This document shows, piece after piece, positions 24,715 to 44,629 of a stretch of 64,000 nt of DNA (position 1 is its first letter; every line of letters starts with the position of its first letter). The notes beneath the pieces are model-generated. The model saw nothing but the letters and a program-made list of their open reading frames with translations. It searched no databases and was not told the origin of the DNA. This stretch comes from a virus, in IMG/VR virus record IMGVR_UViG_3300045988_116681, positions 48,632-112,631 of that record; one strand, 5' to 3'. The position numbers were made by a program, and so were the translations under genes.

Positions 24715-24730
24715 GGGATTTTATGAAATT

Positions 24731-25216: not shown

Positions 25217-25238
25217 GCTACCACCCCGCTTTCGGAGT

Positions 25239-25544: not shown

Positions 25545-25552
25545 TACTTACG

Positions 25553-25559
25553 CCCCCCC
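25553..25559 (-). repeat. G7 homopolymer 8 nt upstream of the B4 ATG
   Basis: Sense strand reads TTCAGTT-G7-CGTAAGTA-ATG. Confidence 0.95.
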
Positions 25560-25611
25560 AACTGAACGAGAAGTTTGTAAGTTGTGAGCGTCAGGAGGAT
25601 TGCTTACGCGC

Positions 25612-25656
25612 TCAACGTAAGCCCCCCCCCAGTGAAACAATGGTTTGGTTCTTCAT
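25612..25656 (-). CDS. leader ORF L6 (14 aa as assembled) containing a G9 tract
   Basis: AAGGAGG, 9 nt, then ATG. It translates to MKNQTIVSLGGGLR*, and the stop lies inside the hairpin GCTTACG-ttgagcg-CGTAAGC. Confidence 0.45.
   Translation of the reverse strand: MKNQTIVSLGGGLR
25622..25630 (-). repeat. G9 homopolymer in leader ORF L6
   Basis: Counted C9 on the plus strand. Confidence 0.95.
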
Positions 25657-25689
25657 AGACCAAATCCTCCTTTATAAAATATATTAACC

Positions 25690-29398: not shown

Positions 29399-29793
29399 TA
29401 TCTTACACGCTCCTTCATCTTGTTGCAAAAGCCCTGAAAACTATCGTGAACATAGTCCTTAACGAGACACATAACAGGATGGTCTACATCATTAATCGCA
29501 ATCCATGACTCGCACTCGTCATCTTCAAATGGACACCAATACTTGTCCTTGGTGTAAATTTTAAGAATCATATCTTCTTCGTCATACTCAATGTAATCGA
29601 AGCGAGATTCACTACTATGTTCACGAAACTTTTTGCTTGTGTCCTTCTCACGGCGGAACAGTGACGCTTCTTTAAGCATCTCACTCGCAAACAGAATGAA
29701 ATTGTCAACAGGAATAAATGATTCTGTTCCGTCAATCATGCCGACATACACCAGTGGCTCACCTTCGTGCTTCAACACTTTACCAAAAAACAT
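29398..29793 (-). CDS. hypothetical protein
   Basis: 131-aa ORF, the first gene after the promoter at 29827. Confidence 0.6.
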   Translation of the reverse strand: MFFGKVLKHEGEPLVYVGMIDGTESFIPVDNFILFASEMLKEASLFRREKDTSKKFREHSSESRFDYIEYDEEDMILKIYTKDKYWCPFEDDECESWIAINDVDHPVMCLVKDYVHDSFQGFCNKMKERVR

Positions 29794-29826
29794 ATTAAAT
29801 AACCTCCTTGGTTTGTTTGTGAGTAC

Positions 29827-29855
29827 ATTGTATCACATACCAAGGAGGTTGTCAA
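29827..29855 (-). promoter_or_regulatory. sigma-A-type promoter with a conserved upstream A/T module
   Basis: TTGACA-17-TACAAT, preceded by ATAAAATTTCATAAT. Confidence 0.7.
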
Positions 29856-29874
29856 TAGAAATTATGAAATTTTA

Positions 29875-30144
29875 TTAGTCTTTCTTTGGAACAGTATAAG
29901 ACTTAGCATTAGTGCTATCGCCCAACCCTGCTGTGGTAGGGTCATTGAGCGCGTTCCAAATATTTGATGCAACAAGGAATAGGCAGTAAGGATTTGATAC
30001 AGTGCCCTTAATCACGTTCCATACGCCCATCCAAGTTGTGAGGTCTGCCGCTGTCAGACCTGCATAAGCAAGTGCAGTGGCAAAAGCACCAATAATGATT
30101 TGTACCCAAAAGGTCGGGTTCTTAATTCTCACTTTTAGATTCAT
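29875..30144 (-). CDS. holin (Phage_holin_1 / LL-H type)
   Basis: KNPTFWVQIIIG..TWMGVWNV..NPYCL..DPTTAGLGDS pattern, directly downstream of the endolysin. Confidence 0.8.
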   Translation of the reverse strand: MNLKVRIKNPTFWVQIIIGAFATALAYAGLTAADLTTWMGVWNVIKGTVSNPYCLFLVASNIWNALNDPTTAGLGDSTNAKSYTVPKKD

Positions 30145-30147
30145 ACT

Positions 30148-31878: not shown

Positions 31879-31892
31879 TATATCACTTCCTT

Positions 31893-31921
31893 TAGAGAAA
31901 GGGGAGAGACGAACTCTCCCC
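31893..31921 (-). terminator. candidate intrinsic terminator upstream of the endolysin
   Basis: GGGGAGAG-ttcgt-CTCTCCCC followed by TTTCTCT on the minus strand. Confidence 0.45.
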
Positions 31922-31928
31922 TTGATAA

Positions 31929-32144
31929 TTACTTATGAAGCAGACCGTTTTCTTCCAGTAGCTTACGATAAGGAATGCTTAGAAGTTCTGGTACACCAGT
32001 CTTTTCAGCACGCCACTGAATGTAAACAGCACGAGCGAGGTCGTCATGCTCGATGTTGTGAGCGTTATCCCACTTATCAAGTTGAACCCCAATATCTCCT
32101 TCAAGTTTTGCAATGTGTCGATGTTGTAGTTTGTAGTTGTACAT
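31929..32144 (-). CDS. hypothetical protein
   Basis: ATG at 32144 (MYNYKLQHRH..). Confidence 0.5.
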   Translation of the reverse strand: MYNYKLQHRHIAKLEGDIGVQLDKWDNAHNIEHDDLARAVYIQWRAEKTGVPELLSIPYRKLLEENGLLHK

Positions 32145-32167
32145 AATTTTTTCTTCCTTTCTTTTTG

Positions 32168-32590
32168 TTATGCGACTTTTATCCATTCTGTAGGATAACC
32201 AATAATTATTTTTGCAGTCGAAGAAGCAAAATAATCTTTTGCGATTTCTCCTTGCTTTTTAACATATATAATTTTATATTTAATTGTAAAATTATATGTT
32301 CGAGTAAGCGGAGTGCGAGAATAAATTTGTATACCAAATCCAACTTCTTTAGAATTGAGATATAGAGAATTATCGTCAGTAGTATAATAACCCGGTGGTT
32401 CTACATCTACTGTACCGCTTACCCACTGTAAGCCCACAGCAGTGTCTATTCCTAATAATTGAAGTGAAGCAGACGTACCATTTATGAAAGTATTGTTTAT
32501 TGCTAATTCAAAAGTTCCTTCATATACGCCCAACTCCGCAATGCCAGTATCAATTCCTTTACTTCCAAGGTGATTGACGATACTATTCAT
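32168..32590 (-). CDS. family A small protein (A, partner of B1)
   Basis: MNSIVNHLG... Own SD GAGGTGA. The start sits in an ATGA context. Confidence 0.65.
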   Translation of the reverse strand: MNSIVNHLGSKGIDTGIAELGVYEGTFELAINNTFINGTSASLQLLGIDTAVGLQWVSGTVDVEPPGYYTTDDNSLYLNSKEVGFGIQIYSRTPLTRTYNFTIKYKIIYVKKQGEIAKDYFASSTAKIIIGYPTEWIKVA

Positions 32591-32976
32591 GCAATCACCT
32601 CGTTTCTATTTAATAGAACGCTACTGCATAAGCCGAGTCTTTCCCTTGTAAATGGTCTATGGTCATTGTTTTGCCAGCGAATGTTACATCTATATAATCG
32701 TTTTCTGAGTTGGAGTCGGCATAATGGTAAGTTGTTGTTTGTTCGGAATAATAAATGCTTACTGAATATCCGTAATTGTATCCACTGGCAGAATAATACA
32801 TACTTAAAGAAACAAATTTCGGGACGTGAGAGAAAGTAAATTTTATTTCTTCGTTGTAGGCTTCTGCTTCTTTGTATTCCGCAGTTAAGCCTTGCACTTG
32901 TAAAGGCTCTCCCATAATCTTTCCGTTCATCTACTCTGCCCCCCCCAAGTCTCATTGAGGTTTGCATATTATACAT
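32587..32976 (-). CDS. leader ORF L2, which as assembled (G8) continues through all of B1 in the -1 frame and stops on the start codon of the A gene
   Basis: This is the same frame as track ORF 32587..33030. ATG at 32976 follows AAAGGA. Its TGA (32587-32589) overlaps ATG 32588-32590. Confidence 0.4.
   Translation of the reverse strand: MYNMQTSMRLGGGRVDERKDYGRAFTSARLNCGIQRSRSLQRRNKIYFLSRPEICFFKYVLFCQWIQLRIFSKHLLFRTNNNLPLCRLQLRKRLYRCNIRWQNNDHRPFTRERLGLCSSVLLNRNEVIA
32610..32930 (-). CDS. family B small protein (B1)
   Basis: MNGKIMGEPLQVQGLTAEYKE... A paralog of the 40870 protein (shared ..GLTAEY.. and ..VTF(A/S)GK.. segments). Confidence 0.65.
   Translation of the reverse strand: MNGKIMGEPLQVQGLTAEYKEAEAYNEEIKFTFSHVPKFVSLSMYYSASGYNYGYSVSIYYSEQTTTYHYADSNSENDYIDVTFAGKTMTIDHLQGKDSAYAVAFY
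32939..32946 (-). repeat. G8 homopolymer 8 nt upstream of the B1 ATG
   Basis: Sense strand reads GAGACTT-G8-CAGAGTAG-ATG. Confidence 0.95.
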
Positions 32977-33002
32977 ATTGCTCAAATTCCTTTCTGAGCA
33001 AT
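32977..33002. repeat. inverted repeat ATTGCTCA-10 nt-TGAGCAAT
   Basis: The TTGAGCAA motif in both orientations. The loop contains the leader SD. Confidence 0.8.
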
Positions 33003-33026
33003 GAGAAGGAGATGAAGGATAAAAAG

Positions 33027-33356
33027 TCAAGACAAAGTGCCTAATTCAAGATACTTAAAATAGGGTGAAATTGAATTATTATAATAGTTTTCAACCTTGA
33101 AATGCCCCTCCCCGAAATAGAACCACACCGCAGGACTATTTTCGCCAAAGGCACCATACGAGAACTCTATTACTTCCTTAAAAACACTCACTTTACCAAT
33201 CATTACGCTGTTGTCGGTCATCATCAACTTAAAATATAAACTCGCATCTGTTGTTGCAATTTTTACAACTGAGCTACCTTCTGCTACATCTTGATGAATA
33301 GCACTCTTAAAATGAATTGTTCCTTCTACACCCTTACCTGTTACAATCCCATCCAT
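33027..33356 (-). CDS. family A small protein
   Basis: MDGIVTGKG....LELGTLS. Confidence 0.65.
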   Translation of the reverse strand: MDGIVTGKGVEGTIHFKSAIHQDVAEGSSVVKIATTDASLYFKLMMTDNSVMIGKVSVFKEVIEFSYGAFGENSPAVWFYFGEGHFKVENYYNNSISPYFKYLELGTLS

Positions 33357-33406
33357 CAGCCGACACTTCCCTTCATGCCAGCCATCTCATTGCTCATATT
33401 AAATTT

Positions 33407-33469
33407 TAGGAGAATGCTAACGCATTGCCCCCCCCAACCGAAGTCAGGGTTGACTGAATGTTAAACATA
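33407..33469 (-). CDS. leader ORF L1 (20 aa as assembled)
   Basis: AAGGAGAA, 4 nt, then ATG. It translates to MFNIQSTLTSVGGGNALAFS*. Confidence 0.45.
33429..33436 (-). repeat. G8 homopolymer in L1
   Basis: Counted C8 on the plus strand. Confidence 0.95.
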
Positions 33470-33514
33470 ATGTTCTCCTTTTTGTGTAGTTATATTTGAG
33501 CAATGAGTAGAGGG

Positions 33515-33859
33515 TTATTCTAACAACCCAAAATCCACCGAGGAAATATACAAAGACAAATTATTATTGTTAAAACCAAAACCAACATATTCTATTCCTT
33601 CAGTATTAGTATAATCTATGCTAAACGAAGGAGAGTAGTCGCCTGAACTATTTCTAAAAGTAAAATAATTAGTACCTCTTAAAGTTTCATACTTAAAAAT
33701 GCTAATTTGTCCATATAAATCAACGATTTTAACATATGGCGCAATTCTGTCTACAAGAAAGTTAATATGGAACGTATTTAACGCATCGTCTTTATATGAT
33801 TTTTTACTCATGAATGTCAAAGCATTAGCAGTAAATGGCTTATTAACAATCCCATTCAT
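33515..33859 (-). CDS. family A small protein
   Basis: MNGIVNKPF....VDFGLLE. Confidence 0.65.
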   Translation of the reverse strand: MNGIVNKPFTANALTFMSKKSYKDDALNTFHINFLVDRIAPYVKIVDLYGQISIFKYETLRGTNYFTFRNSSGDYSPSFSIDYTNTEGIEYVGFGFNNNNLSLYISSVDFGLLE

Positions 33860-33969
33860 ACAGTCACCTGCTTTCGGTGACTCACATTGCTCAAATATTC
33901 AGTTGTTAGGGAGTTATTGCCCCCCCCCAAGTGAAGCATAAGTTCACTCAGAGAAAACTTGATACGCAT
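33856..33969 (-). CDS. leader ORF L3 (37 aa), terminating in ATGA on the start of the A gene
   Basis: AAGGAGTG SD. It translates to MRIKFSLSELMLHLGGGNNSLTTEYLSNVSHRKQVTV*. Its TGA overlaps ATG 33859. Confidence 0.5.
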   Translation of the reverse strand: MRIKFSLSELMLHLGGGNNSLTTEYLSNVSHRKQVTV

Positions 33970-34003
33970 GGTATCACTCCTTGTTGTTTAATTGAGCAAC
34001 GTG
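33883..34003. repeat. 12-bp inverted repeats (1 mismatch) CACATTGCTCAA / TTGAGCAACGTG flanking leader L3
   Basis: Arms at 33883-33894 and 33992-34003. Confidence 0.8.
33920..33928 (-). repeat. G9 homopolymer in L3
   Basis: Counted C9 on the plus strand. Confidence 0.95.
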
Positions 34004-34013
34004 TGTGATGTGA

Positions 34014-34415
34014 TTAGGATTTTAAGGCAAGCGCTAAATAGAAGCGAGTACCATCTTGGACATTATTTTTGAACAATCGGCATATTATACCAGTATTGAT
34101 AATGTTAAAATCACAATAATAAATATCGCTTGTTCCATTTGTAGTACCCGTTTTATATATTTTAGAACTTAATAAAACATGATTGCTTGTACTGCCACCT
34201 ATAACATCAGCCTTATACTCATATATAGATAGACACGGTGAAGCATAGTACCACGCATTGTCACAACCAATAAGCAAAAGCTTGCAACTATTGTGCGATT
34301 CTTCGTACCAATATAGTATCTGAAATTGTTCACTGGTAGCTTCTGCGGTGATAATATCATCAACATTGATACTTATGTCAGCCAGTTCAGCCAGCTTATT
34401 CACAATCCCATTCAT
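34014..34415 (-). CDS. family A small protein
   Basis: MNGIVNKLAEL... ATG at 34415; the track ORF begins at the GTG one codon earlier. Confidence 0.65.
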   Translation of the reverse strand: MNGIVNKLAELADISINVDDIITAEATSEQFQILYWYEESHNSCKLLLIGCDNAWYYASPCLSIYEYKADVIGGSTSNHVLLSSKIYKTGTTNGTSDIYYCDFNIINTGIICRLFKNNVQDGTRFYLALALKS

Positions 34416-34493
34416 CACATGACCCCCTTACTTGCGTATAGGAGGTTGCCAATCCTGTTGCTCAAAGGAAAGGCGTTAATGACCATTAGAAGG

Positions 34494-34532
34494 TCAGAAG
34501 AACGCCCCCCCCAAGTTAAAGCGAAGGTTCAT
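34494..34532 (-). CDS. leader ORF L4 (12 aa as assembled)
   Basis: AAAGGAGAA SD. It translates to MNLRFNLGGAFF*. Confidence 0.4.
   Translation of the reverse strand: MNLRFNLGGAFF
34505..34512 (-). repeat. G8 homopolymer in L4
   Basis: Counted C8 on the plus strand. Confidence 0.95.
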
Positions 34533-34588
34533 AATTTTGTTCTCCTTTGTTTAATTTTGAGCAACATTAGATGGGTGGTTAGATTGAT

Positions 34589-34978
34589 TTATCCAAACAC
34601 ATAATAATGAACGTTTTTTATTTTGCCACTTTGATTATTCAAATGAAAAGTTATTTTATTGTTTGAATAATCATAGTTCAAATTTTCTATGTCTATAGAA
34701 GAATATCGCACATAAGTTGGGTTGTCACCATCATATTCATAAAGTCTATATGAAAACCCCGAAGTTGAGTTGAGTGGAATCATTTGAACAAATTGCGCTC
34801 TAATTAACATAGATGACGGATTTGGAATAACCACTACTGCCATCGCTTGTGCGTCTATTGGCAATGATTGAAAATCAAAAATAGGAAGTGATACTTCATG
34901 AATGTTACTTGAATAACTACCTTCAAATGAAAAACACTTGTTTTGATTTACAAGTACAGGATTCACGATACCATTCAT
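34589..34978 (-). CDS. family A small protein (partner of B3)
   Basis: MNGIVNPVL... ATG at 34978 in a TGATG context. Confidence 0.65.
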   Translation of the reverse strand: MNGIVNPVLVNQNKCFSFEGSYSSNIHEVSLPIFDFQSLPIDAQAMAVVVIPNPSSMLIRAQFVQMIPLNSTSGFSYRLYEYDGDNPTYVRYSSIDIENLNYDYSNNKITFHLNNQSGKIKNVHYYVFG

Positions 34979-34997
34979 CAAGCCACCCCCTTGAGGG

Positions 34998-35309
34998 TCA
35001 GCCTAAGAATGTCACCAATAAGGGGTCGCTTACGTTGTTGTATTCTATCCGAACAGTGCCAACAGAATAACGAACTATCTGCACTCTTGCTGAAGTAACA
35101 CTTTGGTCTATTAAATATAATTTGTCTGCCGAAAGTAAAGGTAAATAAATCATTGCACCTATCAACGCACTTATGTTGTCTACACTTATTGTGCAAAATA
35201 AAGGTGTTACATCGAAGCCAAAAGTTAGCCCTCTGGTAATGGATTTTGCTTGCAATACTTTTAACCCGCTCATGGATTTTTCTACTTCTTGAATAATCTT
35301 TCCATCCAT
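34998..35309 (-). CDS. family B small protein (B3)
   Basis: MDGKIIQEVEKSM... ATG at 35309 in a TAATG overlap with leader L5. Confidence 0.6.
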   Translation of the reverse strand: MDGKIIQEVEKSMSGLKVLQAKSITRGLTFGFDVTPLFCTISVDNISALIGAMIYLPLLSADKLYLIDQSVTSARVQIVRYSVGTVRIEYNNVSDPLLVTFLG

Positions 35310-35410
35310 TAGTACGCCCACCTCTCTTGTTGCTCAACCGAGAGGTAATCATCGGTGGGCTTACTTGGCGTATGCCCCCCCCAGTGACGGGGAGTTTTAG
35401 TCTTAATCAT
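35309..35410 (-). CDS. leader ORF L5 (33 aa), terminating TAATG on the B3 start
   Basis: GGAGAA SD. It translates to MIKTKTPRHWGGHTPSKPTDDYLSVEQQERWAY*. Confidence 0.45.
   Translation of the reverse strand: MIKTKTPRHWGGHTPSKPTDDYLSVEQQERWAY
35375..35382 (-). repeat. G8 homopolymer in L5
   Basis: Counted C8 on the plus strand. Confidence 0.95.
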
Positions 35411-35422
35411 ATGTATTTCTCC

Positions 35423-35830
35423 TTACATATTGTCTACAATTTCATGCATCTTATCTTCTAAATGAATTGCAATGAACGATAGTAACGCCCATGCAAAGCA
35501 GAAGAATAGATTGCACTGTCCAAAAAAGAAGGTAAATGGTAAGTGGCTGTAGTCCCACACACCCATGTGTAAGATATTATTCAGCACTACACCAGTCAAT
35601 CCTTCAAGAACCGTGATAACCACAGTTCCAATTACTACTTGTTGCCATTGCTTGTATTGGTGTTTTCCTTCATTTAGCAATCCTACAATGACGAAACATA
35701 AGCCGCCGAGAACTGCCATAGTCCAGTTGGTTGGTTTACCCTTCCAAATGGTTTCGATGGCGAAGTAAATCCCGCCACCCATCACACCAAATAGCGCATG
35801 AACAAGTATTGAATTTAGTTTATGCTTCAT
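35423..35830 (-). CDS. polytopic membrane protein
   Basis: Four or more hydrophobic helices. ATG at 35830 lies just after the upstream stop. Confidence 0.55.
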   Translation of the reverse strand: MKHKLNSILVHALFGVMGGGIYFAIETIWKGKPTNWTMAVLGGLCFVIVGLLNEGKHQYKQWQQVVIGTVVITVLEGLTGVVLNNILHMGVWDYSHLPFTFFFGQCNLFFCFAWALLSFIAIHLEDKMHEIVDNM

Positions 35831-35834
35831 AGCT

Positions 35835-36521
35835 TTAAGCCAACTTAGCAAGCATAGCGTCCATCTGAGCCTTTGCAGAAGCCAATACCTTAACTTCTTG
35901 CTCTGCTAACTTACCAGTTAGTTCAGTTGCAAGGGTAATCGCTTTAACAGTTTCCTTATCCTCACAGCTATTAGCAAACTGCCGCAAAAGATTGCAATGT
36001 GTGGTCAGTTTAGTAATGAGCGTTTGCATTGCTACATACAAACTAACAATATCAGCCTTTGGATAAATCACACATTCCTTGCCGTCAGCGTGATAAGGAA
36101 ATTCCTCAACGCCCATAACAACTGCATTGAAGATGTTGCCAATGTTGGCTTGGTCGTTTGCTGTTAGGCTGAAATGTTCATCGCCGTAAGAAGTCTTAAC
36201 GTCAACGCCAGCGTAAATAGTCTGCTCAGTAGTATCATTGAGTGACTTAATAGCTTCTGCACGAACTTCTTCAATGGTCGGCTCGTATGGTGTCGGCTTA
36301 ACTTCTTCGTCTACATTGATATGAACAGCATTACCAGTACACTTCCATACCTTGTAATCAGCCTTTTCGTATGCTACCAGTAGCTTGCCATCATCAGAAG
36401 TGAACATTAGTTCATCGCCAAGTTCAATATCGTGATTGCCGTTAAGATACATAGTACATACCTTATCGTTCAGCATACCAGTAACATTGTTATATGTCTT
36501 GCCATTAGTTAGTAGTTTCAT
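35835..36521 (-). CDS. hypothetical protein (tail-fibre-associated, DUF4376-like)
   Basis: 228 aa, coupled by ATGA to the tail-fibre-like gene. The family call comes from recalled sequence patterns only. Confidence 0.5.
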   Translation of the reverse strand: MKLLTNGKTYNNVTGMLNDKVCTMYLNGNHDIELGDELMFTSDDGKLLVAYEKADYKVWKCTGNAVHINVDEEVKPTPYEPTIEEVRAEAIKSLNDTTEQTIYAGVDVKTSYGDEHFSLTANDQANIGNIFNAVVMGVEEFPYHADGKECVIYPKADIVSLYVAMQTLITKLTTHCNLLRQFANSCEDKETVKAITLATELTGKLAEQEVKVLASAKAQMDAMLAKLA

Positions 36522-36919
36522 TACTGCACCTCACCTACAACTTGAACAACAAACCCTGATTGTGGAGCAGAATTACCGCTTGTAGTAAGAGTTAGTGTGT
36601 TATTACCTGTCTGACCATAGTCTGCAAGCAGAGCGAACGCAGCTTTTTCATTTGCCGCTGTTGCCGAGTCAGAAGATGGTAGAAGATAAATGATTGGCTG
36701 ATAGCGCATTGTTTCAGCAAGACCTTGAATAGTCTGTGTCTGCTTGTAAACGCCGCCCTGTAGTGTCCAGCCAGCTTTCGTAAAGGTTGCAGTACCGAAC
36801 ACTGTTTTGCCAACTTCAAGGTTGGTTCGTGCTCCCAGCGCCGTAGTAGCGCCAGTACCGCCATCGGGGATTGAAACTGGGGTGGAAATACCCTGTCCCA
36901 GTATACCGCCAAAACCCAT
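36521..36919 (-). CDS. tail-fibre-like protein
   Basis: VSIPDGGTGATTALGARTNL matches the GGTGATTAxxAR.NLG motif that recurs at the N-termini of phage tail-fibre proteins. Confidence 0.6.
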   Translation of the reverse strand: MGFGGILGQGISTPVSIPDGGTGATTALGARTNLEVGKTVFGTATFTKAGWTLQGGVYKQTQTIQGLAETMRYQPIIYLLPSSDSATAANEKAAFALLADYGQTGNNTLTLTTSGNSAPQSGFVVQVVGEVQ

Positions 36920-36975
36920 ACTTTGTCACTTCCTTTTCTATAAATTTAGGCGAATCTCTCGCCTTTGATATTAGC

Positions 36976-37004
36976 ATTATACCACATCCTTATACACTTG
37001 TCAA
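36976..37004 (-). promoter_or_regulatory. sigma-A-type promoter
   Basis: TTGACA-17-TATAAT. Confidence 0.7.
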
Positions 37005-37026
37005 GGGGTAAATTGTAAATAATTTG

Positions 37027-38118
37027 TTAATTATTCAGAATATCAATCGTCCGCGCTTCATACAGCTTTTGCCATGTCTGAAAGTCGCGGTCTACTGCAT
37101 TTTCTTTACGCTCAAGTAGACCCAAGCTATCCCACACAACATCAACTTGTGCAAGACCAGACCATAGTTCAGCTTGCTTCATAATCTTGTTGTTCCATTG
37201 CTCAAACTCTGCGTCTGTACCGCCAGTAGCATCATTATCTACAATAAGGACAACATGGTTAACGCCCAACTTCAGCAGTTGATTCCTGCGCTGTAAGCCA
37301 AGCTGTGAGCCAAACATAGCGACTGCCGTTGATTGTGAGCCAAGAAAACTATGCAATTTGAGCACCGCTTTCTCGCTTTCGGCAATCATTACAGTACCAG
37401 TACGCTCTATTTCATATTGATTCTGCGCCAATCCGTATAGAACTGCATTAGTAGGGAACTTATAGATAGTGCCATCCAACAGTTGCAAAGGTCGATATTT
37501 ACCATTTATTGCATTTTCACCCCAATACCTACAGCGAATCCCTACCAAGTCATAATTTTCATTAAACACAGGAATGGTCGTTCCCCATTCTCGCCCATAC
37601 CAACCGATACGAAACAAGGCTTGCGTTTCTTCGCTTATACCTTCATTTACCCATGCTTGACACGGCATATTGGGTATAGTGTCAAGAATAGATGCGTCAT
37701 AAGTCGGCAATAAGCTACCGCCATTTCGTACTGTAATGAACTTCTCAAGTCCAGACCAATCCGTAATATTGGGGTTGGCTACACGCTGAACTTGAGAAGA
37801 TTCAATACCAGTAACATCAAGAATGTAATTTACCGCGTCTATGAAAGAGCAAGGTTGCTTTAGTAGAGATAATCGTGTTTGTGTTAGTGAGATAATGTCG
37901 TATGAACGCCCAGCGGTTAGACCAAGGTAAACGCTTGTGTCTGGATAAAATAGTAATTTTGCTGAACCATCTAAAGCATTAACATTCTTATCGCCAGTAA
38001 AATAAATAATTTCATTTGGGCGTTCCATAAAGATAGGAATACCCAACGACTTCATTATCTTCTTGTGGTCATCAATAGTTAATCGGGCTTTCAGAGCCTT
38101 AGTATTTATCTTAGCCAT
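37027..38118 (-). CDS. DNA primase (Toprim domain)
   Basis: MIAESEKAV (Toprim Glu) and LIVDNDATGG (DxD). Confidence 0.65.
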   Translation of the reverse strand: MAKINTKALKARLTIDDHKKIMKSLGIPIFMERPNEIIYFTGDKNVNALDGSAKLLFYPDTSVYLGLTAGRSYDIISLTQTRLSLLKQPCSFIDAVNYILDVTGIESSQVQRVANPNITDWSGLEKFITVRNGGSLLPTYDASILDTIPNMPCQAWVNEGISEETQALFRIGWYGREWGTTIPVFNENYDLVGIRCRYWGENAINGKYRPLQLLDGTIYKFPTNAVLYGLAQNQYEIERTGTVMIAESEKAVLKLHSFLGSQSTAVAMFGSQLGLQRRNQLLKLGVNHVVLIVDNDATGGTDAEFEQWNNKIMKQAELWSGLAQVDVVWDSLGLLERKENAVDRDFQTWQKLYEARTIDILNN

Positions 38119-38136
38119 TTCCAGCCCGTCCTTTAC

Positions 38137-38553
38137 TTACTCAATATCTGCTACATAATATCCTTTAGCTACATAAAGATGAACCCCATCGTCCGCGTTA
38201 AGCGCAAACAAAATAGAATTGCCACAAGCGACAAACTTTAGCGATTCATCTGGGTGAGCAAGGAAATAATCAATGGCTTCACGAATCCAATCGTTAATCT
38301 CTTGGTCACTCTGCTGAACACCGCCATTAAAATCATAAAAATCTTCTGGAAAACGCGGTGGGTTGCTTAGTGAGAATGTTTCTGCACAAAAACCATTACA
38401 TTCAGGGCAAATCACATATGCGTTATTGTGAATATCGCGCTGTACGTCATCACTATCGTACTCAAATTCACAACCACAAATAGGGCAAGTTACACGCTTT
38501 GTTACAATTTCGCGTGCGGTACTCTTAGTATCACCGTGCTTAATTACCTTCAT
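38137..38553 (-). CDS. hypothetical zinc-ribbon protein
   Basis: CPICG..CPECNG. ATG at 38553 lies 6 nt after AGGAGG. Confidence 0.5.
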   Translation of the reverse strand: MKVIKHGDTKSTAREIVTKRVTCPICGCEFEYDSDDVQRDIHNNAYVICPECNGFCAETFSLSNPPRFPEDFYDFNGGVQQSDQEINDWIREAIDYFLAHPDESLKFVACGNSILFALNADDGVHLYVAKGYYVADIE

Positions 38554-39667
38554 TTTCATCCTCCTGCTCTTCTTGTGAAATGCCATAAGTTACAATAAAT
38601 TCCTTTACTGCCTTGGCAAATTCATCAATTTCGGCTTGTGTGGTGGGAGTAACACCGCCGTCAAAACTTAGCCGAATACATTCGCTTGCTTCTTTTTCGG
38701 AATAACCAGCGTGCATTAGTACGCGATAACGCTCCTTACCATCTTCACATGAACTGTGCCCTACGCCAATGTAAATCTTCTTACTTGCGAGGAAAACCTG
38801 CAATGCGTCAGCGTACACACCATTGATACGAAGGCACACAATATCAGTGATGTAATCTTCTGCGCCAGATAGAGCCATTGTACTGTACTTAACGCCTTGC
38901 TCAAACAGCGCATTTCTAACAGCATTATCCCATTCTTCTGTACAGCGATGATTATAATGCACTACACTACGCATAAGCGCATAAGCTGTACTTGTTGCAC
39001 TGTCAACGTCAGGTGTACCGATATAATCAATACCATTCAGCCATTCATTAAATCGGTCGCTTACCCAAATAAAGCCTTGACCCTTTTCACCGTGGAATTT
39101 ATGAGCACTGGCAATAACGCAATCACAGAAATCTTCAAGGTGCTCTGGAATATCATACTTGCCAATGCTTGCGGTCATGTCACACACAAAAAAGCCGTTA
39201 AGTTCTCGCGTCACAGTGCCAATGTCAACAACAGGGAAAACTTCACCAGTGATATTGGAAACAAGCTGACAAAATGTAATAGGTGTCCTATTAAGACAGC
39301 AGTCTTTTACCACTTTTTTATCGCATAGTTCTTCAATATTATAAGCAAACACTGGATTGCTGGCAATACATTCATGCTCATAGGGTGAACTCATCATACG
39401 ATAATTCTTGTCTGGAACATCGTCATCGTCAAAGGCTTCAACCCATGCTTCACTGATTTTGTTAAACAAATAGTCAAACATCTTGCTTGCTGTACCGCCA
39501 AACACAACCTTGCCAGAACTTACGCCAAGCGAATGCTTTACGCTGTTTTCTGCATTAAATAGTGCTTCACGGCTCTCAGCACCATAAGGCGTGTTAGCGT
39601 TCAACCAAGTACAACTATAAGACGTGTACTTAGGGAAAGTGGTAGCCGCACTATCAAGATAAATCAT
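38540..39667 (-). CDS. class V aminotransferase / cysteine desulfurase-like (NifS/IscS/DndA-type)
   Basis: MIYLDSAATT at the N-terminus and SAHKFHG (the PLP-binding lysine). Confidence 0.7.
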   Translation of the reverse strand: MIYLDSAATTFPKYTSYSCTWLNANTPYGAESREALFNAENSVKHSLGVSSGKVVFGGTASKMFDYLFNKISEAWVEAFDDDDVPDKNYRMMSSPYEHECIASNPVFAYNIEELCDKKVVKDCCLNRTPITFCQLVSNITGEVFPVVDIGTVTRELNGFFVCDMTASIGKYDIPEHLEDFCDCVIASAHKFHGEKGQGFIWVSDRFNEWLNGIDYIGTPDVDSATSTAYALMRSVVHYNHRCTEEWDNAVRNALFEQGVKYSTMALSGAEDYITDIVCLRINGVYADALQVFLASKKIYIGVGHSSCEDGKERYRVLMHAGYSEKEASECIRLSFDGGVTPTTQAEIDEFAKAVKEFIVTYGISQEEQEDENEGN

Positions 39668-39873
39668 TCATTATCACCCCATGTATTCAGTTCAATAAAC
39701 AAATCAGCAAGAACCATAACTACAATGTTAACGCCCCAGAAAATAACGCTGAAGCCCATTTCTATGGAAGAAATATTAACAGACAAACTTTCTGTTTGCA
39801 TTGCCATATCAGCCAATTGGTACGCTGTTCTAATACAGCCTATAAGCAGATAAATTAAAACAAAAAACCACAT
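39664..39873 (-). CDS. small membrane protein
   Basis: 69 aa with two helices and ATGA coupling. Confidence 0.5.
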   Translation of the reverse strand: MWFFVLIYLLIGCIRTAYQLADMAMQTESLSVNISSIEMGFSVIFWGVNIVVMVLADLFIELNTWGDNE

Positions 39874-40229
39874 TATTCGTTTTCTCCTAAATCCTTAATC
39901 ATGCAAAGTTGCTTGATATGCTTTACACCATGTCCATCAATAAAATAAGAATAGAACCAAATCTGGTGATTGTATTCGTAAGTGTACAAGAAGTGAATAC
40001 TACCGTTTGCGGCAGTTACGCTTTCACTTGCCAGTAGCTTGCCGTTTCTATCCAGAACTTCGGGTGGCATGATAAGGTGAATCTGCTGTTCAGTGTAAAC
40101 ACGAGTTTCGCCATTATCATATGCAATGGTATACTTAATAACAGGCGAACTCATGTAATCAATATCAACAACCTTGCCGATACCGCGTGGCGTAGCTACA
40201 CTACAATAATTCTCATAACGAACGTTCAT
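39873..40229 (-). CDS. hypothetical protein
   Basis: 118-aa ORF. Confidence 0.55.
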   Translation of the reverse strand: MNVRYENYCSVATPRGIGKVVDIDYMSSPVIKYTIAYDNGETRVYTEQQIHLIMPPEVLDRNGKLLASESVTAANGSIHFLYTYEYNHQIWFYSYFIDGHGVKHIKQLCMIKDLGENE

Positions 40230-40230
40230 A

Positions 40231-40395
40231 TTACTGCTCCTTTCTCCAATTAAACCAAGTTACATATCCCCAGCCACACGTTGCAATACCCCATAGAGCA
40301 CCAAGTAGAATTTGGTTTAGTTGAAACTTCATGATTGCTTCTAACAGTGTGGCAATGAAGCCAGCTAATGATAGAACTCTTAGTGCGATTTTCAT
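40231..40395 (-). CDS. small membrane protein (54 aa; below the track cutoff)
   Basis: GGAGGT, 6 nt, then ATG. It translates to MKIALRVLSLAGFIATLLEAIM... Confidence 0.45.
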   Translation of the reverse strand: MKIALRVLSLAGFIATLLEAIMKFQLNQILLGALWGIATCGWGYVTWFNWRKEQ

Positions 40396-40441
40396 AATTA
40401 GACCTCCTTAATATAATAGGAAACGCTGTTCCTTTGTGATT

Positions 40442-40470
40442 ATTGTATCACAGGAACAGCGTTTTGTCAA
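40442..40470 (-). promoter_or_regulatory. sigma-A-type promoter embedded in a 13-bp inverted repeat
   Basis: TTGACA-17-TACAAT. The arms AAACGCTGTTCCT..AGGAACAGCGTTT enclose the -10. The upstream ATAAAATTTCATAAT module is present. Confidence 0.7.
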
Positions 40471-40487
40471 TAAGGAATTATGAAATT

Positions 40488-40847
40488 TTATTGTAAAGTT
40501 CCAACTGCGATTTTGGAAAGTATACTATTTATTTGTATATTGGCATTGATTTGTACAAAATTAGCATTTATATAATATTGTGTGCCTACATAAATTTCTG
40601 CTATACCTCCCCAATTATCACTGTAAAAACGAATTGTGGTATAATTTGAAGATTGCAGTGTGCTAAGTTGTAACATAACACTACTATCATAAATTCCATA
40701 AATTATTATATATTTTTCTTTATGGTTTTCTTCTTGCATAATAGAAGTGGTATAACGACTTGAAGTTACTTCAGACAAATCATAATATTCTTCAGCCACA
40801 AAAGAAACATCAGACAGAACAGGCGATTGCGCGATAATTGCATTCAT
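40488..40847 (-). CDS. family A small protein (partner of B2)
   Basis: MNAIIAQSP....IAVGTLQ. SD GAGGTGA. ATGA context. Confidence 0.65.
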   Translation of the reverse strand: MNAIIAQSPVLSDVSFVAEEYYDLSEVTSSRYTTSIMQEENHKEKYIIIYGIYDSSVMLQLSTLQSSNYTTIRFYSDNWGGIAEIYVGTQYYINANFVQINANIQINSILSKIAVGTLQ

Positions 40848-40869
40848 GCAATCACCTCATTTCTGGCGG

Positions 40870-41193
40870 TTAGAAGAAGCCTACTGCAAAAACCTTGCTT
40901 GCACTGACTGAAGATAATTCTATATTTTTCCCAGAAAATGTTACATAAAATGAATTGGTTTGTGAACCTTCCAAAGCGTAATACACATAGCAATTGTCTG
41001 GAAACCATGCTATATTCACGCTGTATGCTGCGTTTGAAGTGTACCTTTGAGGACTCCAAAGTGTTAGGCTTACAAAACTCGGCGCTTGGGAAAAAGAAAG
41101 CGTGACTTCTTGTTGATGGACTTCTTCTTCGAGATACTCTGCCGTCAGCCCGTTTTCCTGCTCCACAAATTCCTTCATTACTTTTGCGTTCAT
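40870..41193 (-). CDS. family B small protein (B2)
   Basis: MNAKVMKEFVEQENGLTAEY... Confidence 0.65.
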   Translation of the reverse strand: MNAKVMKEFVEQENGLTAEYLEEEVHQQEVTLSFSQAPSFVSLTLWSPQRYTSNAAYSVNIAWFPDNCYVYYALEGSQTNSFYVTFSGKNIELSSVSASKVFAVGFF

Positions 41194-41201
41194 TTAATCT
41201 G

Positions 41202-41209
41202 CCCCCCCC
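41202..41209 (-). repeat. G8 homopolymer 8 nt upstream of the B2 ATG
   Basis: Sense strand reads GCGAGTT-G8-CAGATTAA-ATG. Confidence 0.95.
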
Positions 41210-41243
41210 AACTCGCGCCAAGGTTGACAGATTACAGCTTACA

Positions 41244-41294
41244 TCACCGTGTAAGCCCCCCCCAAGTGAAACGGAGGTTTGGTAAATTGAACAT
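41244..41294 (-). CDS. leader ORF L7 (16 aa as assembled)
   Basis: AAAGGAGGA SD. It translates to MFNLPNLRFTWGGLTR*. Confidence 0.45.
   Translation of the reverse strand: MFNLPNLRFTWGGLTR
41256..41263 (-). repeat. G8 homopolymer in L7
   Basis: Counted C8. Followed by the hairpin GCTTAC-acggtgat-GTAAGC. Confidence 0.95.
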
Positions 41295-41332
41295 AAAAAT
41301 GTCCTCCTTTAATTATATTATGAGGAAAATCC

Positions 41333-42856
41333 TCACTTTAACTTAGGTTTTGGAATTGATACAAATTTATTGTAAGAATCGCATACAAAAAAATCAGTAT
41401 TACGCATAGTACCCATGTCAAAATAATGGAATATTTTGAGTTTACGGTCTTGATATTCGCCAAATCGTGACTTGTGAATATATGTAATACGGTTAGGAAC
41501 AAGCGTGTTATTTAGCCCCTTTTCTCTTTGGTGCTTAATAAACGGCTCTACCAGCTTCATTTCTTTCGGTCTGTCTTTAGCGGCTAATACAACACAGCCA
41601 AAGTCAACCTTGGTTCGTGAAGCCTTAGAGGAAGAAATACAGCTTTCGTCAGGGAAGTCTAATTGCTTCTCATTACCGTTGGTCTGCGTCATTGTAAGCA
41701 AGCCAACATTATACTTCTCTGCATATGCTTTAAGGTCTGTTGCCAGTCCTCTTAAAGCCATATCTTCACGCGCTTGTACGCCTGTATTGGCACGATACTC
41801 CATAGACAATGCGCTGTTAAGCATCATATAGTCGAAACAGCCGTACACTGCGCCATAGCCTTCTACACATTCCTTAATCTTACGGTCGATATTAGCTGAA
41901 GTAAAATCAGGCATATCAATCAATCTAAGGTTGCAGTTCTTAATAATCTCTGCGGCTTTGATAACTCGCTTGCGTTCTTCGTCAGTACAGTTACCCATAG
42001 TAATTGTATTTGATGGCACATTGGCTATGCAAGCAAGAAACATAGGTTGCATCTCTGTACGCTGTGCCAACTCAGTATGGATAAAGAATCCTGCGCCTTG
42101 ATAATTGGGATTGGGGATAAAATCTTGCGCTTCATCGTCCCAATATTGGTCTACACAAAGACCACAAATATCAGCTACAGCCATACGAGTTTTACCCACG
42201 GAACTCGGGCAAGACCGCATAAACAAGTGTCCACGGTTAAATCCATGCGCTAATTCTGTTTGATAAGGTGAATACAAGAACGCGCCATAAGACGGCTTCT
42301 CGTCAAATTCAGCAAGCAATCCTTCAATATCTTCGCCTACCGTCATTTCTTCACGCACATACTTACTATCGTACTTTGTTCTTAGGCTGTTCGCCTTATA
42401 CTCAACAGCATTAAGAATCTGCTCAATAGTCAGCTTTTCCAGCTTTGCGCGTTCATCGGATTCATTGCCAAGCGTATCATAAAATTCTTTAATATCCACA
42501 CCTTGCTCGTCAAGTTCTCTTAACAGAGCAAACTTGCGGATAACAGAATAATAATATTCGTAGTTATCTGGGTTCGCCAATTCCTTTACTGTGTAAATAA
42601 AGTCAAGGTAATTGTTATCTCGGCAAACTTCCATTTGTGGAACATGATTCTGAAGCACAGATTCAATTTCAACTTCTGTAACTTCGCCTACACCACTTCT
42701 TGCCAGCTTTGCAATACATACAAAGATAACTTGATGAAAGTTTGAAGGAGCAAATGTGGCTTTATCCAATGGATATTCTGGTAATGATAGCAACTGTGGT
42801 CGTTTCATTAAACTGCCAAGCATCAGTGATGCAAGGTTTACATCATAAAGTTCCAT
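41333..42856 (-). CDS. DnaB-like replicative helicase
   Basis: DnaB-type N-terminal domain (ELYDVNLASLMLGSLM) and a RecA-like core (SCPSSVGKTRMAV). Confidence 0.75.
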   Translation of the reverse strand: MELYDVNLASLMLGSLMKRPQLLSLPEYPLDKATFAPSNFHQVIFVCIAKLARSGVGEVTEVEIESVLQNHVPQMEVCRDNNYLDFIYTVKELANPDNYEYYYSVIRKFALLRELDEQGVDIKEFYDTLGNESDERAKLEKLTIEQILNAVEYKANSLRTKYDSKYVREEMTVGEDIEGLLAEFDEKPSYGAFLYSPYQTELAHGFNRGHLFMRSCPSSVGKTRMAVADICGLCVDQYWDDEAQDFIPNPNYQGAGFFIHTELAQRTEMQPMFLACIANVPSNTITMGNCTDEERKRVIKAAEIIKNCNLRLIDMPDFTSANIDRKIKECVEGYGAVYGCFDYMMLNSALSMEYRANTGVQAREDMALRGLATDLKAYAEKYNVGLLTMTQTNGNEKQLDFPDESCISSSKASRTKVDFGCVVLAAKDRPKEMKLVEPFIKHQREKGLNNTLVPNRITYIHKSRFGEYQDRKLKIFHYFDMGTMRNTDFFVCDSYNKFVSIPKPKLK

Positions 42857-42944
42857 CGGAATCAACCCCAATCTGCTTTGTCATTTACTGCTATCAAAAA
42901 AGCAATAGCAATGATTAAAATAAACCATTTTGCCATTTCTGTCA

Positions 42945-43514
42945 TTAAAAATCAACTGCCTTCACATTGTAGTTAGTTCGGTTTCCATCTCGCTCGATTT
43001 CTACAGTTTCTTCTTCGGGTAGAACAAACGTCTTATTTGCCTTTAGCTTTTCCATGAACTGATAAAACGGCTCAATATATCGAGGAAAAAACTGTGTTAA
43101 GCTAATCTTCGGGTCGAACTGGTGATTATCATACATCAGTGCATATACTATTATACCACGAAGCTGAGAATAGTCAAGACCAAATTTCTCCATATAGTTG
43201 CTGGCTTGGCGTTGCCACAATGGGAAGTTACGGCAATCTTCTGGATATGTTACGTTAAGCAAATCCAAGAACTTGCGATATTCGCCATCACCATTATCTC
43301 GCATATCTTTTTGGCGTTGCTTTTCTTCACGCTTTTGTCGTGCTTTTCCTTCACGCGCTCTTGCTTTGGTTTCGTCTTGAATTTGACGTTCTTCTGCCTT
43401 GGCAAGTAAGTATGCGTCATAGCAATCTTGACTGCAAAAATGGTTCGTTTTATAACGCTTACCATTATATCGCTGACCTCTGGGGATGTCTGCCCCACAT
43501 ACGTCACAAGTCAT
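42945..43514 (-). CDS. hypothetical zinc-finger protein
   Basis: ATG at 43514 follows GGAGGTGA. Contains CDVCG..HFCSQDC. Confidence 0.55.
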   Translation of the reverse strand: MTCDVCGADIPRGQRYNGKRYKTNHFCSQDCYDAYLLAKAEERQIQDETKARAREGKARQKREEKQRQKDMRDNGDGEYRKFLDLLNVTYPEDCRNFPLWQRQASNYMEKFGLDYSQLRGIIVYALMYDNHQFDPKISLTQFFPRYIEPFYQFMEKLKANKTFVLPEEETVEIERDGNRTNYNVKAVDF

Positions 43515-43562
43515 TTGTTCACCTCCAATACAAAGACCGCAGTTATTTCTAACCACGGTCTA

Positions 43563-43591
43563 ATTGTATCACATATTTATTGGTTTGTCAA
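43563..43591 (-). promoter_or_regulatory. sigma-A-type promoter
   Basis: TTGACA-17-TACAAT. Confidence 0.7.
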
Positions 43592-43600
43592 GAAAAATTT

Positions 43601-44629
43601 TTAATCTTCTACAACAATTCCTCGGTCACAACAGAAAGATGTGAAATCAGAATAGATGTTCGCCAGTTCTTGAATCTCATCATCAGTAGCGGTAGATACC
43701 TTACGACCTTCGCCCAGATTATCGGCTACAACCTGCTGAACATAATCAGGATATAGCTTGTGTAGCTTGATAAAATATGGCTGAATCATAGAGATATAAT
43801 CTTCCTTGGTGAAGTTGAAGTCTACATTCTTGTAATCTACCAGACCAGCGCCTTCGTTCTCTGCTTCCTTCTTGATAGCGGTTTCAATCGCTTCAATTAG
43901 ATTTTCCGCAGTGAACTTTTCAATATAAGTCTGCATCTGCGTAAAGCGAGAACGTGCAAATACTGTGTGCGTTTCCTTACAGATTGCCTTAGAGTAAATG
44001 GTCTTTTGCGTTTCTGGGTCAACACCCATTGGCACAGTAGTCACAACAAAGTCACACAAATTGATAACAAAACGTGTACTGCCCTTTTCCTTAGAATAGT
44101 TATAAGGATAAGTCTTAGTATACTTTTCGCCAGTAAAGGGGTCGGTAACTTCCACCTGCTCAACGTGAGTAATGAAAATAACCGTTAGACCAATAGAAGT
44201 CAGTAGGTTAATCTGTTGCTTAAACATTGCACGAGCGACAGAATAACCATTTGGGTTGTTCTTTGGGTCGGCAGACTGTACCATACCAACCTCGGTAACG
44301 CCAAAACGTCTTGCTACGGCTTCTTCAGCGCGTGCTACAAGTTCTTCAGTGGTGTCAATGATAATAGTCTGGTAAACTTCCAGTGTCTTAGCTGGGTCTG
44401 CTACCAGTTGCTTGACAATAGTGGTAAACGTCTGCCAATCTGGAACAGGGAACTTCGGCACAGGACGAGCCGCACCGCCTGATTCAGCCATTAGTAGCAG
44501 TGGCTTTGGGAAACGTGTTGCTTGGAACGTCTTACCGCCATCGCTACTACCTGCAATAGTAATCTTAACACCAGCAAGAGAAGAAACCATGCTCTTCTCT
44601 TGTGGCGCGAAAATGTCAATCTTAGCCAT
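43601..44629 (-). CDS. Sak4-like AAA_24 ATPase (recombination mediator)
   Basis: IAGSSDGGKT (Walker A) and IIIDTTEE (Walker B), positioned next to an SSB-like gene. Confidence 0.6.
   Translation of the reverse strand: MAKIDIFAPQEKSMVSSLAGVKITIAGSSDGGKTFQATRFPKPLLLMAESGGAARPVPKFPVPDWQTFTTIVKQLVADPAKTLEVYQTIIIDTTEELVARAEEAVARRFGVTEVGMVQSADPKNNPNGYSVARAMFKQQINLLTSIGLTVIFITHVEQVEVTDPFTGEKYTKTYPYNYSKEKGSTRFVINLCDFVVTTVPMGVDPETQKTIYSKAICKETHTVFARSRFTQMQTYIEKFTAENLIEAIETAIKKEAENEGAGLVDYKNVDFNFTKEDYISMIQPYFIKLHKLYPDYVQQVVADNLGEGRKVSTATDDEIQELANIYSDFTSFCCDRGIVVED

Follow-up and report, generated by a model that had tools for sequence, protein, structure and literature searches.

In bacteria, homopolymer slippage is a familiar source of phase variation; in phages its recognition is only recent. 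Classical bacterial contingency loci have the repeat within the coding region or the promoter spacer, and in all cases known to us it is found in the regulated gene or its promoter. The MS2 coat-replicase junction and the erm and cat leaders are the paradigms of termination-reinitiation coupling and of leader-peptide control over a structure that sequesters a ribosome-binding site (RBS). Here we describe c41, a cassette on the - strand behind dnaB of an uncultured human-gut phage, in which a short leader open reading frame (ORF) and two G tracts in series precede two small genes, B2 and A. The DNA comes from IMG/VR virus record IMGVR_UViG_3300045988_116681, positions 48,632-112,631; this whole stretch of 64,000 nt is called the window, and all coordinates are window positions unless another record is named. 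We consider it likely that c41 is a contingency locus in which slipped-strand phase variation is read out by translational coupling.

Among phages, polyG phase variation has been described for the receptor-binding proteins of Campylobacter Fletchervirus (Sorensen et al. 2021, Cell Rep 35:109214, as cited in PMC12823448 and PMC12633550). The same two articles note intragenic polyG tracts in phage BPP-1 (methylase gene) and in PB1-like phages, and a preprint by Gomez, Barrick & Waters (2025; PMC12633550) reports phage contingency loci, among them intragenic ones in T2 and T4. Like Fletchervirus as presented in the citing articles, the phage studied here encodes G7-G11 runs of varying length, several per genome. 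In Fletchervirus, however, the tract is located inside the regulated ORF and loss of the frame truncates the product, whereas in c41 it belongs to a separate leader and the regulated proteins are never frameshifted. Length variants of Fletchervirus are described as giving subpopulations that differ in the expression of host-interaction proteins; here the expression is predicted from the frames.

Layout and frame logic of the c41 cassette

Behind the dnaB stop (41333) the - strand carries, in this order, a Shine-Dalgarno (SD) sequence, the leader ATG, tract 1, hairpin 1, tract 2, B2 and A. The elements are the following (dG, predicted free energy; z, z-score).

41303-41310, - strand: SD sequence AAAGGAGG of the leader, 8 nt before the ATG at 41294
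41244-41294, - strand: leader ORF L7 in its present G8 state, 16 codons (MFNLPNLRFTWGGLTR) and TGA
41256-41263, - strand: tract 1 (G8), the putative gate; G7 and G10 pass, G8 and G9 stop
41237-41256, - strand: hairpin 1, GCTTAC-ACGGTGAT-GTAAGC with an 8-nt loop; dG -8.7, z -2.3
41195-41234, - strand: hairpin 2 (predicted), tract 2 and the spacer CAGATTA (B2 ribosome-binding region) paired with the upstream TAATCTG...CCTTGGC
41202-41209, - strand: tract 2 (G8), the putative selector, 8 nt before the B2 ATG
40870-41193, - strand: B2, 107 aa, ATG at 41193
40844-41221, - strand: stop-free -1 frame (the "conduit"), from before tract 2 across B2 to the A start
40833-40858, - strand: RBS of A, with the SD GAGGTGA at 40852-40858 and a predicted 10-bp hairpin GGTGATTGCA/TGCAATTATC that has the ATGA in or beside its loop
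40488-40847, - strand: A, 119 aa, ATG at 40847
40421-40489, - strand: 3' boundary with AAAATTTCATAA, a promoter, a 13-bp inverted repeat and T-rich sequence

When recomputed on the - strand, the coordinates that a first-pass annotation had given for leader, tracts, B2 and A were right at every position. That annotation had called the cassette a two-digit switch, and its frame arithmetic is exact over all combinations of tract lengths. With tract 1 at G8 the leader ends, as had been stated, after 16 codons inside GCTTAC..GTAAGC, namely at a TGA (41246-41244) in the loop of hairpin 1. At G9 it ends at TAA 41241 in the 3' arm, and both OFF-frame stops fall within this hairpin. At G7 or G10 the leader frame is open as far as tract 2. 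Once this point is passed, G8 in tract 2 gives a frame of 149 codons from the leader ATG, which contains the predicted ORF 40844..41221 (125 aa when counted from its first TTG), crosses all of B2 and ends with the TGA within the ATGA of the A start at 40847. The outcome foreseen for G9, an ATGA on the B2 start at 41193, was found as well; with G7, which had gone unmentioned, the leader's TAA directly abuts the B2 ATG. Since G7 and G9 lead to B2 and G8 leads to A, tract 2 has no OFF class, and this is to be added to the earlier description. The ORFs of B2 and A are intact in every tract state, and no length fuses the leader to either of them. The window copy, [8,8] in the order tract 1, tract 2, is predicted to be OFF.

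The interpretation of this layout that we consider likely is as follows. The leader ORF with its strong SD would always be translated, and slipped-strand mispairing at replication would alter the lengths of both G tracts, as the polymorphism between copies indicates indirectly. Tract 1 would be a gate, two of its three length classes ending the leader in hairpin 1, ~50 nt before B2. With the gate closed, the ribosome-binding regions of B2 and A would stay folded and neither protein would be made; this is the OFF state predicted for the window. With the gate open (G7 or G10), ribosomes would traverse hairpin 2 and tract 2, the selector. In two length classes of the selector they would terminate on or against the B2 start (ATGA, or TAA followed by ATG) and re-initiate on B2; in the third class they would translate all of B2 in the -1 frame, stop at the ATGA on A and re-initiate there.

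The stop-free frame, the tracts and the start regions

The stops to be expected in the -1 frame of B genes were obtained by resampling synonymous codons from the window's own codon usage, 20,000 times per B gene. The -1 frames of the four B genes in the window contain 0 stops each, against 8.1-13.2 expected (P<=5e-5 each); for any one gene no more than one resampling in 20,000 produced such a frame, and 0-0.3% of the synonymous permutations within a gene did so. For B2 itself 8.6 stops were expected in this frame and none of the 20,000 resamplings left it open. The +1 frame of B2 has 11 stops and those of the four B genes have 10-18, at or above expectation. As a control, 110-codon windows of ordinary genes were inspected, and not one of 682 had an open -1 frame. 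With the fetched relatives included, an open -1 frame that ends in gcATGA on the next gene is present in 14 of 16 B genes (14 distinct proteins, about eight divergent alleles).

Among c41-type B2 genes 45 of 321 sites are variable, evenly over the codon positions, and the -1 frame is nevertheless open in all nine alleles. The ratio of nonsynonymous to synonymous substitutions among them is 82:36 in the B2 frame. The -1 peptide is rich in Arg, Cys and Leu, and in its own frame the substitutions stand at 88:30, with no purifying selection seen. We also considered whether the -1 ORF could be the true gene, with B a spurious call, and rejected this in view of the confident predicted fold of B, the composition of the -1 peptide and the 88:30 substitutions. 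As the -1 peptide shows no purifying selection and the model of B is confident, the -1 frame is best read as a path for ribosomes and not as a protein. The lack of stops in the -1 frame of the B genes is a product of selection; if the decoder proposed below is real, the conduit would be a kind of selected feature that has not been recognised before, a frame that encodes no functional protein.

To compare the tracts, relatives were collected by a DnaB search, which gave 2 IMG/VR and 17 metagenome loci (DnaB 90-99% identical; at least some from human-gut samples), and by look-ups of exact proteins, in independent assemblies from JGI, ENA and Logan. All tract lengths are those of consensus contigs from short-read metagenomes, and variation was compared between assemblies. 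The first-pass annotation had made its switch depend on heterogeneity of the tracts, and such heterogeneity exists between assemblies. In the 14 independent c41-type copies recovered, tract 1 ranges from G7 to G10 (G7 in one, G8 in nine, G9 in three, G10 in one) and tract 2 from G6 to G10 (G6 in three, G7 in two, G8 in six, G9 in two, G10 in one). The copy in L021 differs from the window over 1,967 nt solely by one additional G in tract 1. Twelve copies are predicted to be OFF, one to express A (L010, [7,8]) and one to express B (L022, [10,6]); in L022 the gene caller had independently called a leader extended to 34 aa that overlaps the B start. In a flank-matched control, in which runs were compared where the 14-nt flanks match exactly on both sides, length differences were found in 8 of 12 comparisons for G tracts of at least 8, versus 3 of 116 for A/T runs of 5-7.

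The start regions of the cassette genes are predicted to be structured. Hairpin 2, which contains tract 2, has a dG of -21.1 and a z of -4.6, and none of 200 shuffles was as stable. Its apical stem occurs as GGC..GTT, as AGT..ACT (compensatory) and as GAC..GTT, and one variant has a mismatched closing pair. A paralogous cassette of the window, c25, builds the same hairpin-2 architecture from different sequence (ACTTAC/GTAAGT) and also has an equivalent of hairpin 1 behind its tract 1. The region -14..+3 of the A and B starts in cassettes is predicted to be less accessible than that of 38 ordinary window genes (Mann-Whitney P=0.0013). A starts that lie behind a B gene rank in the 0-8th percentile of accessibility; for the A start of c41 the unpaired probability is 0.24, the 8th percentile of ordinary genes. 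The overlaps of stops and starts together with the structured start regions support termination-reinitiation coupling in which the RBSs would be occluded. A search of Rfam 15 gave no match at E<=1 within 24000-42000.

Further cassettes, their exchange and their products

G tracts are strongly enriched in the window: 28 G7 windows (13 tracts of at least G7) were counted against 1.0 expected, a number reached by none of 100 shuffles, and there are no A or T runs of 9 or more. Ten of the tracts are spread over eight cassettes of one layout, which consists of an SD, an ATG, a short leader (12-37 codons), ACTT-G8/9-C and genes of two small families, A and B. All eight A-family genes of the window are located behind G tracts, seven of them with a complete leader, the eighth (c63) being cut by the window end. 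In each of the seven complete cassettes, every length class ends the leader early, on the B start or on the A start; the stop/start contexts are ATGA, TAATG, TGATG, or a stop that abuts the ATG or lies 1-3 nt before it. The same rule was found in relatives, other cassette types included. The cassettes besides c41 are listed below.

24731-25656, - strand: c25, the paralogous two-tract cassette; leader ATG at 25656, tracts G9 at 25622-25630 and G7 at 25553-25559
25239-25544 and 24731-25216, - strand: B and A of c25, predicted present state OFF
32168-35410, - strand: five one-tract cassettes (c35, c34, c33b, c33a, c32), downstream of tail-fibre genes
63592-63951 (region 63592-64000), - strand: A-family gene of c63; its G tract (63993-64000, at least G8) runs into the end of the window

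The logic of gate plus selector is shared by c41 and c25. Of the one-tract cassettes, c35 carries B and A (B start 35309), with A reached at G7, B at G8 and an early stop, off, at G9. The A-only cassettes c33a, c33b and c34 (tracts at 33435, 33928 and 34512) are on in one of three length classes, with ATGA or TGATG on A, and the other two classes terminate 50-80 nt upstream of A. In c32, which has B and A and one tract beside B, the leader terminates on the B start at G7 and at G9, whereas at G8 it traverses B and reaches the A start. Hence the two-tract design of c41 and c25 looks like an A-only gate placed before a c32-type selector. The five are flanked directly upstream by two genes with tail-fibre PHROG matches (35835-36919) and downstream by the endolysin. 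The c63 type is complete in L012, L015 and L030.

All six other complete cassettes would follow the same grammar as c41, switching A alone on and off, choosing between B and A, or choosing between B, A and OFF. With such a shared grammar a population could express many combinations of small hypervariable beta-sandwich proteins. In the relative L002 the tracts differ from those of the window in c35 (G8 in the window, G9 in L002), c34 (G8, G7) and c33b (G9, G7), and the predicted expressed subsets differ with them: c35-B, c33b-A and c32-A are predicted to be ON in the window, and c34-A and c32-A in L002. On balance, though with distinctly less assurance than for c41 itself, we lean towards the view that the phage possesses a combinatorial translational decoder, in which at least eight leader-coupled cassettes composed of gate and selector/conduit elements, together with three phase-variable methyltransferases, would yield hundreds of heritable, reversible states.

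The three methyltransferase genes lie in tandem at 9082-11203 (- strand), each with a G/C homopolymer near its 5' end. In a D12 Dam-like gene G8 (9718-9725) truncates the product at 39 codons, and G7 would give 237 aa; an N6_N4 methyltransferase gene has C8 (10551-10558) in frame, and an EcoRI-methylase-like gene has C9 (11065-11073) in frame. By their sequence these genes look like the classical intragenic phase-variable design of phages.

In c33b (33992-33999/33887-33894) and c34 (34557-34564/34458-34465), leader and G tract are enclosed by the two arms, ~100 nt from each other, of an 8-nt inverted repeat, TTGCTCAA...TTGAGCAA. Its occurrences span 32978-35337; it is imperfect in c33a, takes the form of a hairpin before the c32 leader and is absent from c41. 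The window contains 14 copies of TTGAGCAA, where 4.3 would be expected. Long-range RNA pairing and a protein-binding site are possibilities.

Relatives with DnaB proteins 90-99% identical differ in what follows dnaB, and close ones (96-99% identical) have at least four cassette types at this site, between conserved flanks. Some relatives have a two-tract B/A cassette there, with at least three different B alleles, and three one-tract A-only types are found in L001/L009/L013/L014/L018, in L012/L015 and in L011, respectively. L004 has a copy whose tract has decayed to GGGGGAGC. In L007 a two-tract cassette is found 1.6 kb further downstream, the dnaB stop being followed by other sequence; L008 has the same non-cassette sequence as L007, its contig ending 261 nt after dnaB. 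The 5' flank with SD and leader is conserved, and the SD AAAGGAGG is kept after the dnaB stop in relatives that have a cassette directly behind dnaB. The 3' flank, AAAATTTCATAA with the promoter, recurs behind several cassette types. Three side observations concern this site. A hairpin TGAGGA-TTTT-CCTCA spans the dnaB stop (41321-41335, - strand) and is kept in all relatives with a cassette directly after dnaB. In the dnaB-proximal cassette of L011 the tract at 7608 is G9 and the leader ends ATGA on A, which is thus predicted to be ON. In L004 the corresponding tract at ~7606 is interrupted, and with GGGGGAGC this copy looks phase-locked or decayed.

The sequence behind A contains the following elements of the 3' boundary.

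40478-40489, - strand: AAAATTTCATAA, 3' cassette flank
40442-40470, - strand: promoter TTGACA-17-TGTGATACAAT (TACAAT, TG extension), the best of the region, behind A
40421-40464, - strand: 13-bp inverted repeat AAACGCTGTTCCT/AGGAACAGCGTTT with T-rich tail; dG -27.2, z -7.6; terminator-like for the upstream transcript

The promoter is embedded in the inverted repeat. No site resembling a promoter or a terminator was found in the interval from dnaB to the leader. The lack of such sites before the leader and the presence of a terminator-like repeat and a strong promoter after A fit an insulated unit, and from this arrangement we infer that c41 is transcribed together with dnaB and that the genes downstream are insulated from polarity by a promoter of their own. 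The first-pass annotation had noted that the same promoter and A/T module follows c41 and c25 and had suggested a duplicated or mobile module. The motif AAAATTTCATAA-N7-TTGACA-N17-(TG)TAyaAT is indeed present behind both; it is not private to them, since it also occurs at 29873 and, in relatives, behind other cassette types. Its occurrence elsewhere indicates a promoter type of the phage and a conserved 3' cassette boundary, not an element specific to the cassettes. The idea of a mobile module is partly supported, in the form of allelic replacement between conserved flanks after dnaB. At 40421-40470 and 24660-24705 the inverted repeat of this promoter type flanks the -10 box, and genes for membrane proteins of 54-55 aa follow; in the 29873 region the motif is present with or without the inverted repeat.

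How far the design extends was also searched in IMG/VR. The exact hairpin 1 was matched in the L002 contig only, and a generic, narrow leader pattern (ACTT-G8-C) in three contigs only, all of one metagenome. As searched with this pattern, the design is clade-restricted. Megablast of 38000-44000 against the INPHARED phages gave no match.

The proteins of the A family start with MN(G/A/S)I(V/I), those of the B family with M(N/D)(G/A)K(V/I)(M/I). Ten A and B proteins had no significant match in Pfam or PHROGs, and in an alignment of the A with the B profile (hhalign) no relationship appeared beyond the initial MNA. AlphaFold2 (AF2) predicts 8-strand beta-sandwiches for both, with mean confidence (pLDDT) 86 for B and 76 for A; at a pLDDT of 86, the model supports that B is a real protein. 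The best fold matches of B are annotated tail fibre proteins of uncultured phages, at borderline values (E ~1e-3, TM-score 0.52-0.58), and in Foldseek searches neither B nor A had a PDB match at E<=1e-3. The A profile, run against 1.84 billion representatives, found solely its own two clusters and two repetitive proteins. Homologues of A and B are confined to gut-phage contigs, the longest of ~110-115 kb. Judged by these searches, A and B appear to be orphan, fast-evolving proteins, A being clade-restricted and B only weakly similar to tail-fibre tips. Their fast evolution, the replacement of alleles and the phase variation would all be in keeping with a role in host interaction, for instance as fibre tips, decoration proteins or anti-defence proteins. 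Our guess is that they are probably host-recognition modules of the virion surface or associated with the tail fibre.

Other proteins encoded in the window are a Pol III alpha-type polymerase, an ExoV-like helicase, RecJ, primase, DnaB, an amidase endolysin and a protein with phosphodiester glycosidase (NAGPA) and S-layer homology (SLH) domains. The latter gene (25690-26547, - strand) lies directly upstream of c25, and its product hints at a Gram-positive or S-layer-bearing host. The nearest cultured phages have Enterocloster bolteae as hosts, with DnaB 38% identical. The phage would accordingly belong with those of Gram-positive, Lachnospiraceae-type gut bacteria, a group unrelated to the host clade of Fletchervirus.

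Alternative explanations and comparison with described systems

Several observations weigh against reading c41 as a coupled switch. A has a good SD of its own (GAGGTGA), located in the 22-nt spacer between B2 and A, and the 10-bp hairpin predicted at the A start, with dG ~-11 and z -1.0, does not stand out from shuffles. Some of the A protein may be made constitutively, or A may be co-translated after B, which stops 22 nt upstream; likewise, tract 2 itself could serve as SD for B2. Two B alleles have stops in the -1 frame, L006 7677 (3) and L015 12243 (2), and there the selector could not reach A. That 12 of the 14 copies are predicted to be OFF fits the model, and it would fit a locus of little consequence equally well. 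The lengths are those of consensus assemblies and vary between assemblies; switching within one population, at whatever rate, is putative. Finally, slippage of RNA polymerase on G8-G10 could blur the three states.

This last point leads to the alternative that survives best, although we think it improbable: the frame would be chosen mainly at the RNA level, by stuttering of the polymerase on G8-G10 or by slipping of the ribosome, so that each cell makes a fixed mixture of OFF, B and A and the DNA length only retunes the ratios. Long homopolymers are known sites of transcriptional slippage, a hairpin lies directly behind tract 1, and with a defined outcome for each of the three frames the layout would also serve a probabilistic decoder. 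However, the length polymorphism is observed directly in DNA, far above that of other homopolymers, and bacterial slippage is best documented for A/T runs. The configuration of a programmed -1 frameshift site is not found either: hairpin 1 starts at the last G of the tract (spacer 0 nt), without the 5-9 nt spacer of classical -1 stimulators, and the length of the run varies between genomes.

It is quite improbable, in our view, that B2 and A are constitutively made from their own RBSs, with leader and tracts as a conserved recombination or boundary module, or as the decaying remnant of an in-frame N-terminus of the kind found in the Enterocloster phage PMBT24, and with length variation that has no phenotype. 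The SD of A, its weak hairpin, the exchange of cassettes between conserved flanks and the prevalence of copies in the OFF state would all agree with this, and the module of PMBT24, being in frame with long ORFs, suggests that the leader derived from such N-termini. Yet the -1 frames of at least four unrelated B alleles, which lack the 8-13 stops expected and end on the A start, would be left unexplained, as would the leaders of the A-only cassettes, of which one frame ends ATGA or TGATG on A and the other two stop 50-80 nt upstream, and the unusually structured start regions.

That the differences are errors of sequencing or assembly and the true tracts fixed is very improbable: homopolymers are error-prone on some platforms and the data are short-read consensus contigs, but the tracts are found at the same positions in dozens of independent assemblies (JGI, ENA, Logan), their lengths span 4-5 values while the A/T runs of the same contigs are stable (3/116), and an artefact would not create a conserved three-frame design. 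The specific poly-G artefact of NextSeq/NovaSeq was considered separately and rejected, the tracts being internal, conserved in position and set in unique flanks in many independent assemblies.

If c41 is a phase-variable locus read out by coupling, it differs from Fletchervirus in that the point at which the leader terminates sets the output, that one tract chooses between two cistrons and that two tracts act in series. The Fletchervirus type of intragenic tract, as far as the citing articles describe it, is represented in the window by the three methyltransferase genes only, not by c41. With the T2 and T4 loci c41 shares slippage at simple repeats in a phage genome and a bet-hedging character, whereas the repeats there are for the most part short (6 bp or more), lie within ORFs and act by inactivating the gene (PMC12633550); the terms "leader" and "translational coupling" occur nowhere in that paper. 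As in the phase variation of bacteria by simple sequence repeats (Neisseria, Haemophilus, Campylobacter), a homopolymer slips and the frame returns with a periodicity of three. In the literature searched on phase variation with translational coupling, leader peptides, upstream ORFs or reinitiation we found no leader-borne tract that selects between downstream cistrons.

The readout proposed for c41 resembles the MS2, erm and cat paradigms in its stop/start overlaps (ATGA, TAATG) and in a downstream RBS within a hairpin, here a predicted one, that the translating ribosome would have to open. It differs from them in that the input is a heritable, reversible change of DNA length and not a metabolite, a drug or constitutive coupling, and in that one route would be the translation of a whole 107-codon gene out of frame.

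The nearest cultured relative, PMBT24 (OQ326496.2; L028/L029), has the same module of SD, ATG, ..LNRFPT and AACT-Gn-CAT at no fewer than four sites (G6-G10), with tracts at record positions 78325 (G9), 47928 (G10), 73710 (G6) and 49730 (G7). There the design is the classical intragenic one, long ORFs (445 aa at G8, 285 aa at G11) containing the tract in frame, and the leader of the present phage may be derived from such N-termini. In the record several of the tract-bearing ORFs lack annotation or are split, and the tracts go unmentioned in the PMBT24 genome paper. Behind them no A or B genes were seen, although no search for A/B homologues was made there. With this simpler in-frame version in a cultured phage, the evolutionary origin of the leader design would be experimentally approachable.

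If confirmed, c41 would represent a new wiring of a stochastic genetic switch, which can be ON/OFF, a choice between two genes, or two switches in series. It would also mean that an alternative frame can be kept open purely as a path for ribosomes, which bears on gene finders and on the interpretation of overlapping ORFs. Moreover, populations of the abundant human-gut phages that infect Gram-positive anaerobes would be heterogeneous at a level so far unexplored, which would affect host range and the design of phage therapy. Compared with the systems described so far, what appears to be new in the sequence of c41 is slipped-strand phase variation that would be read via the position at which a leader terminates, with a conduit frame and two tracts in series.

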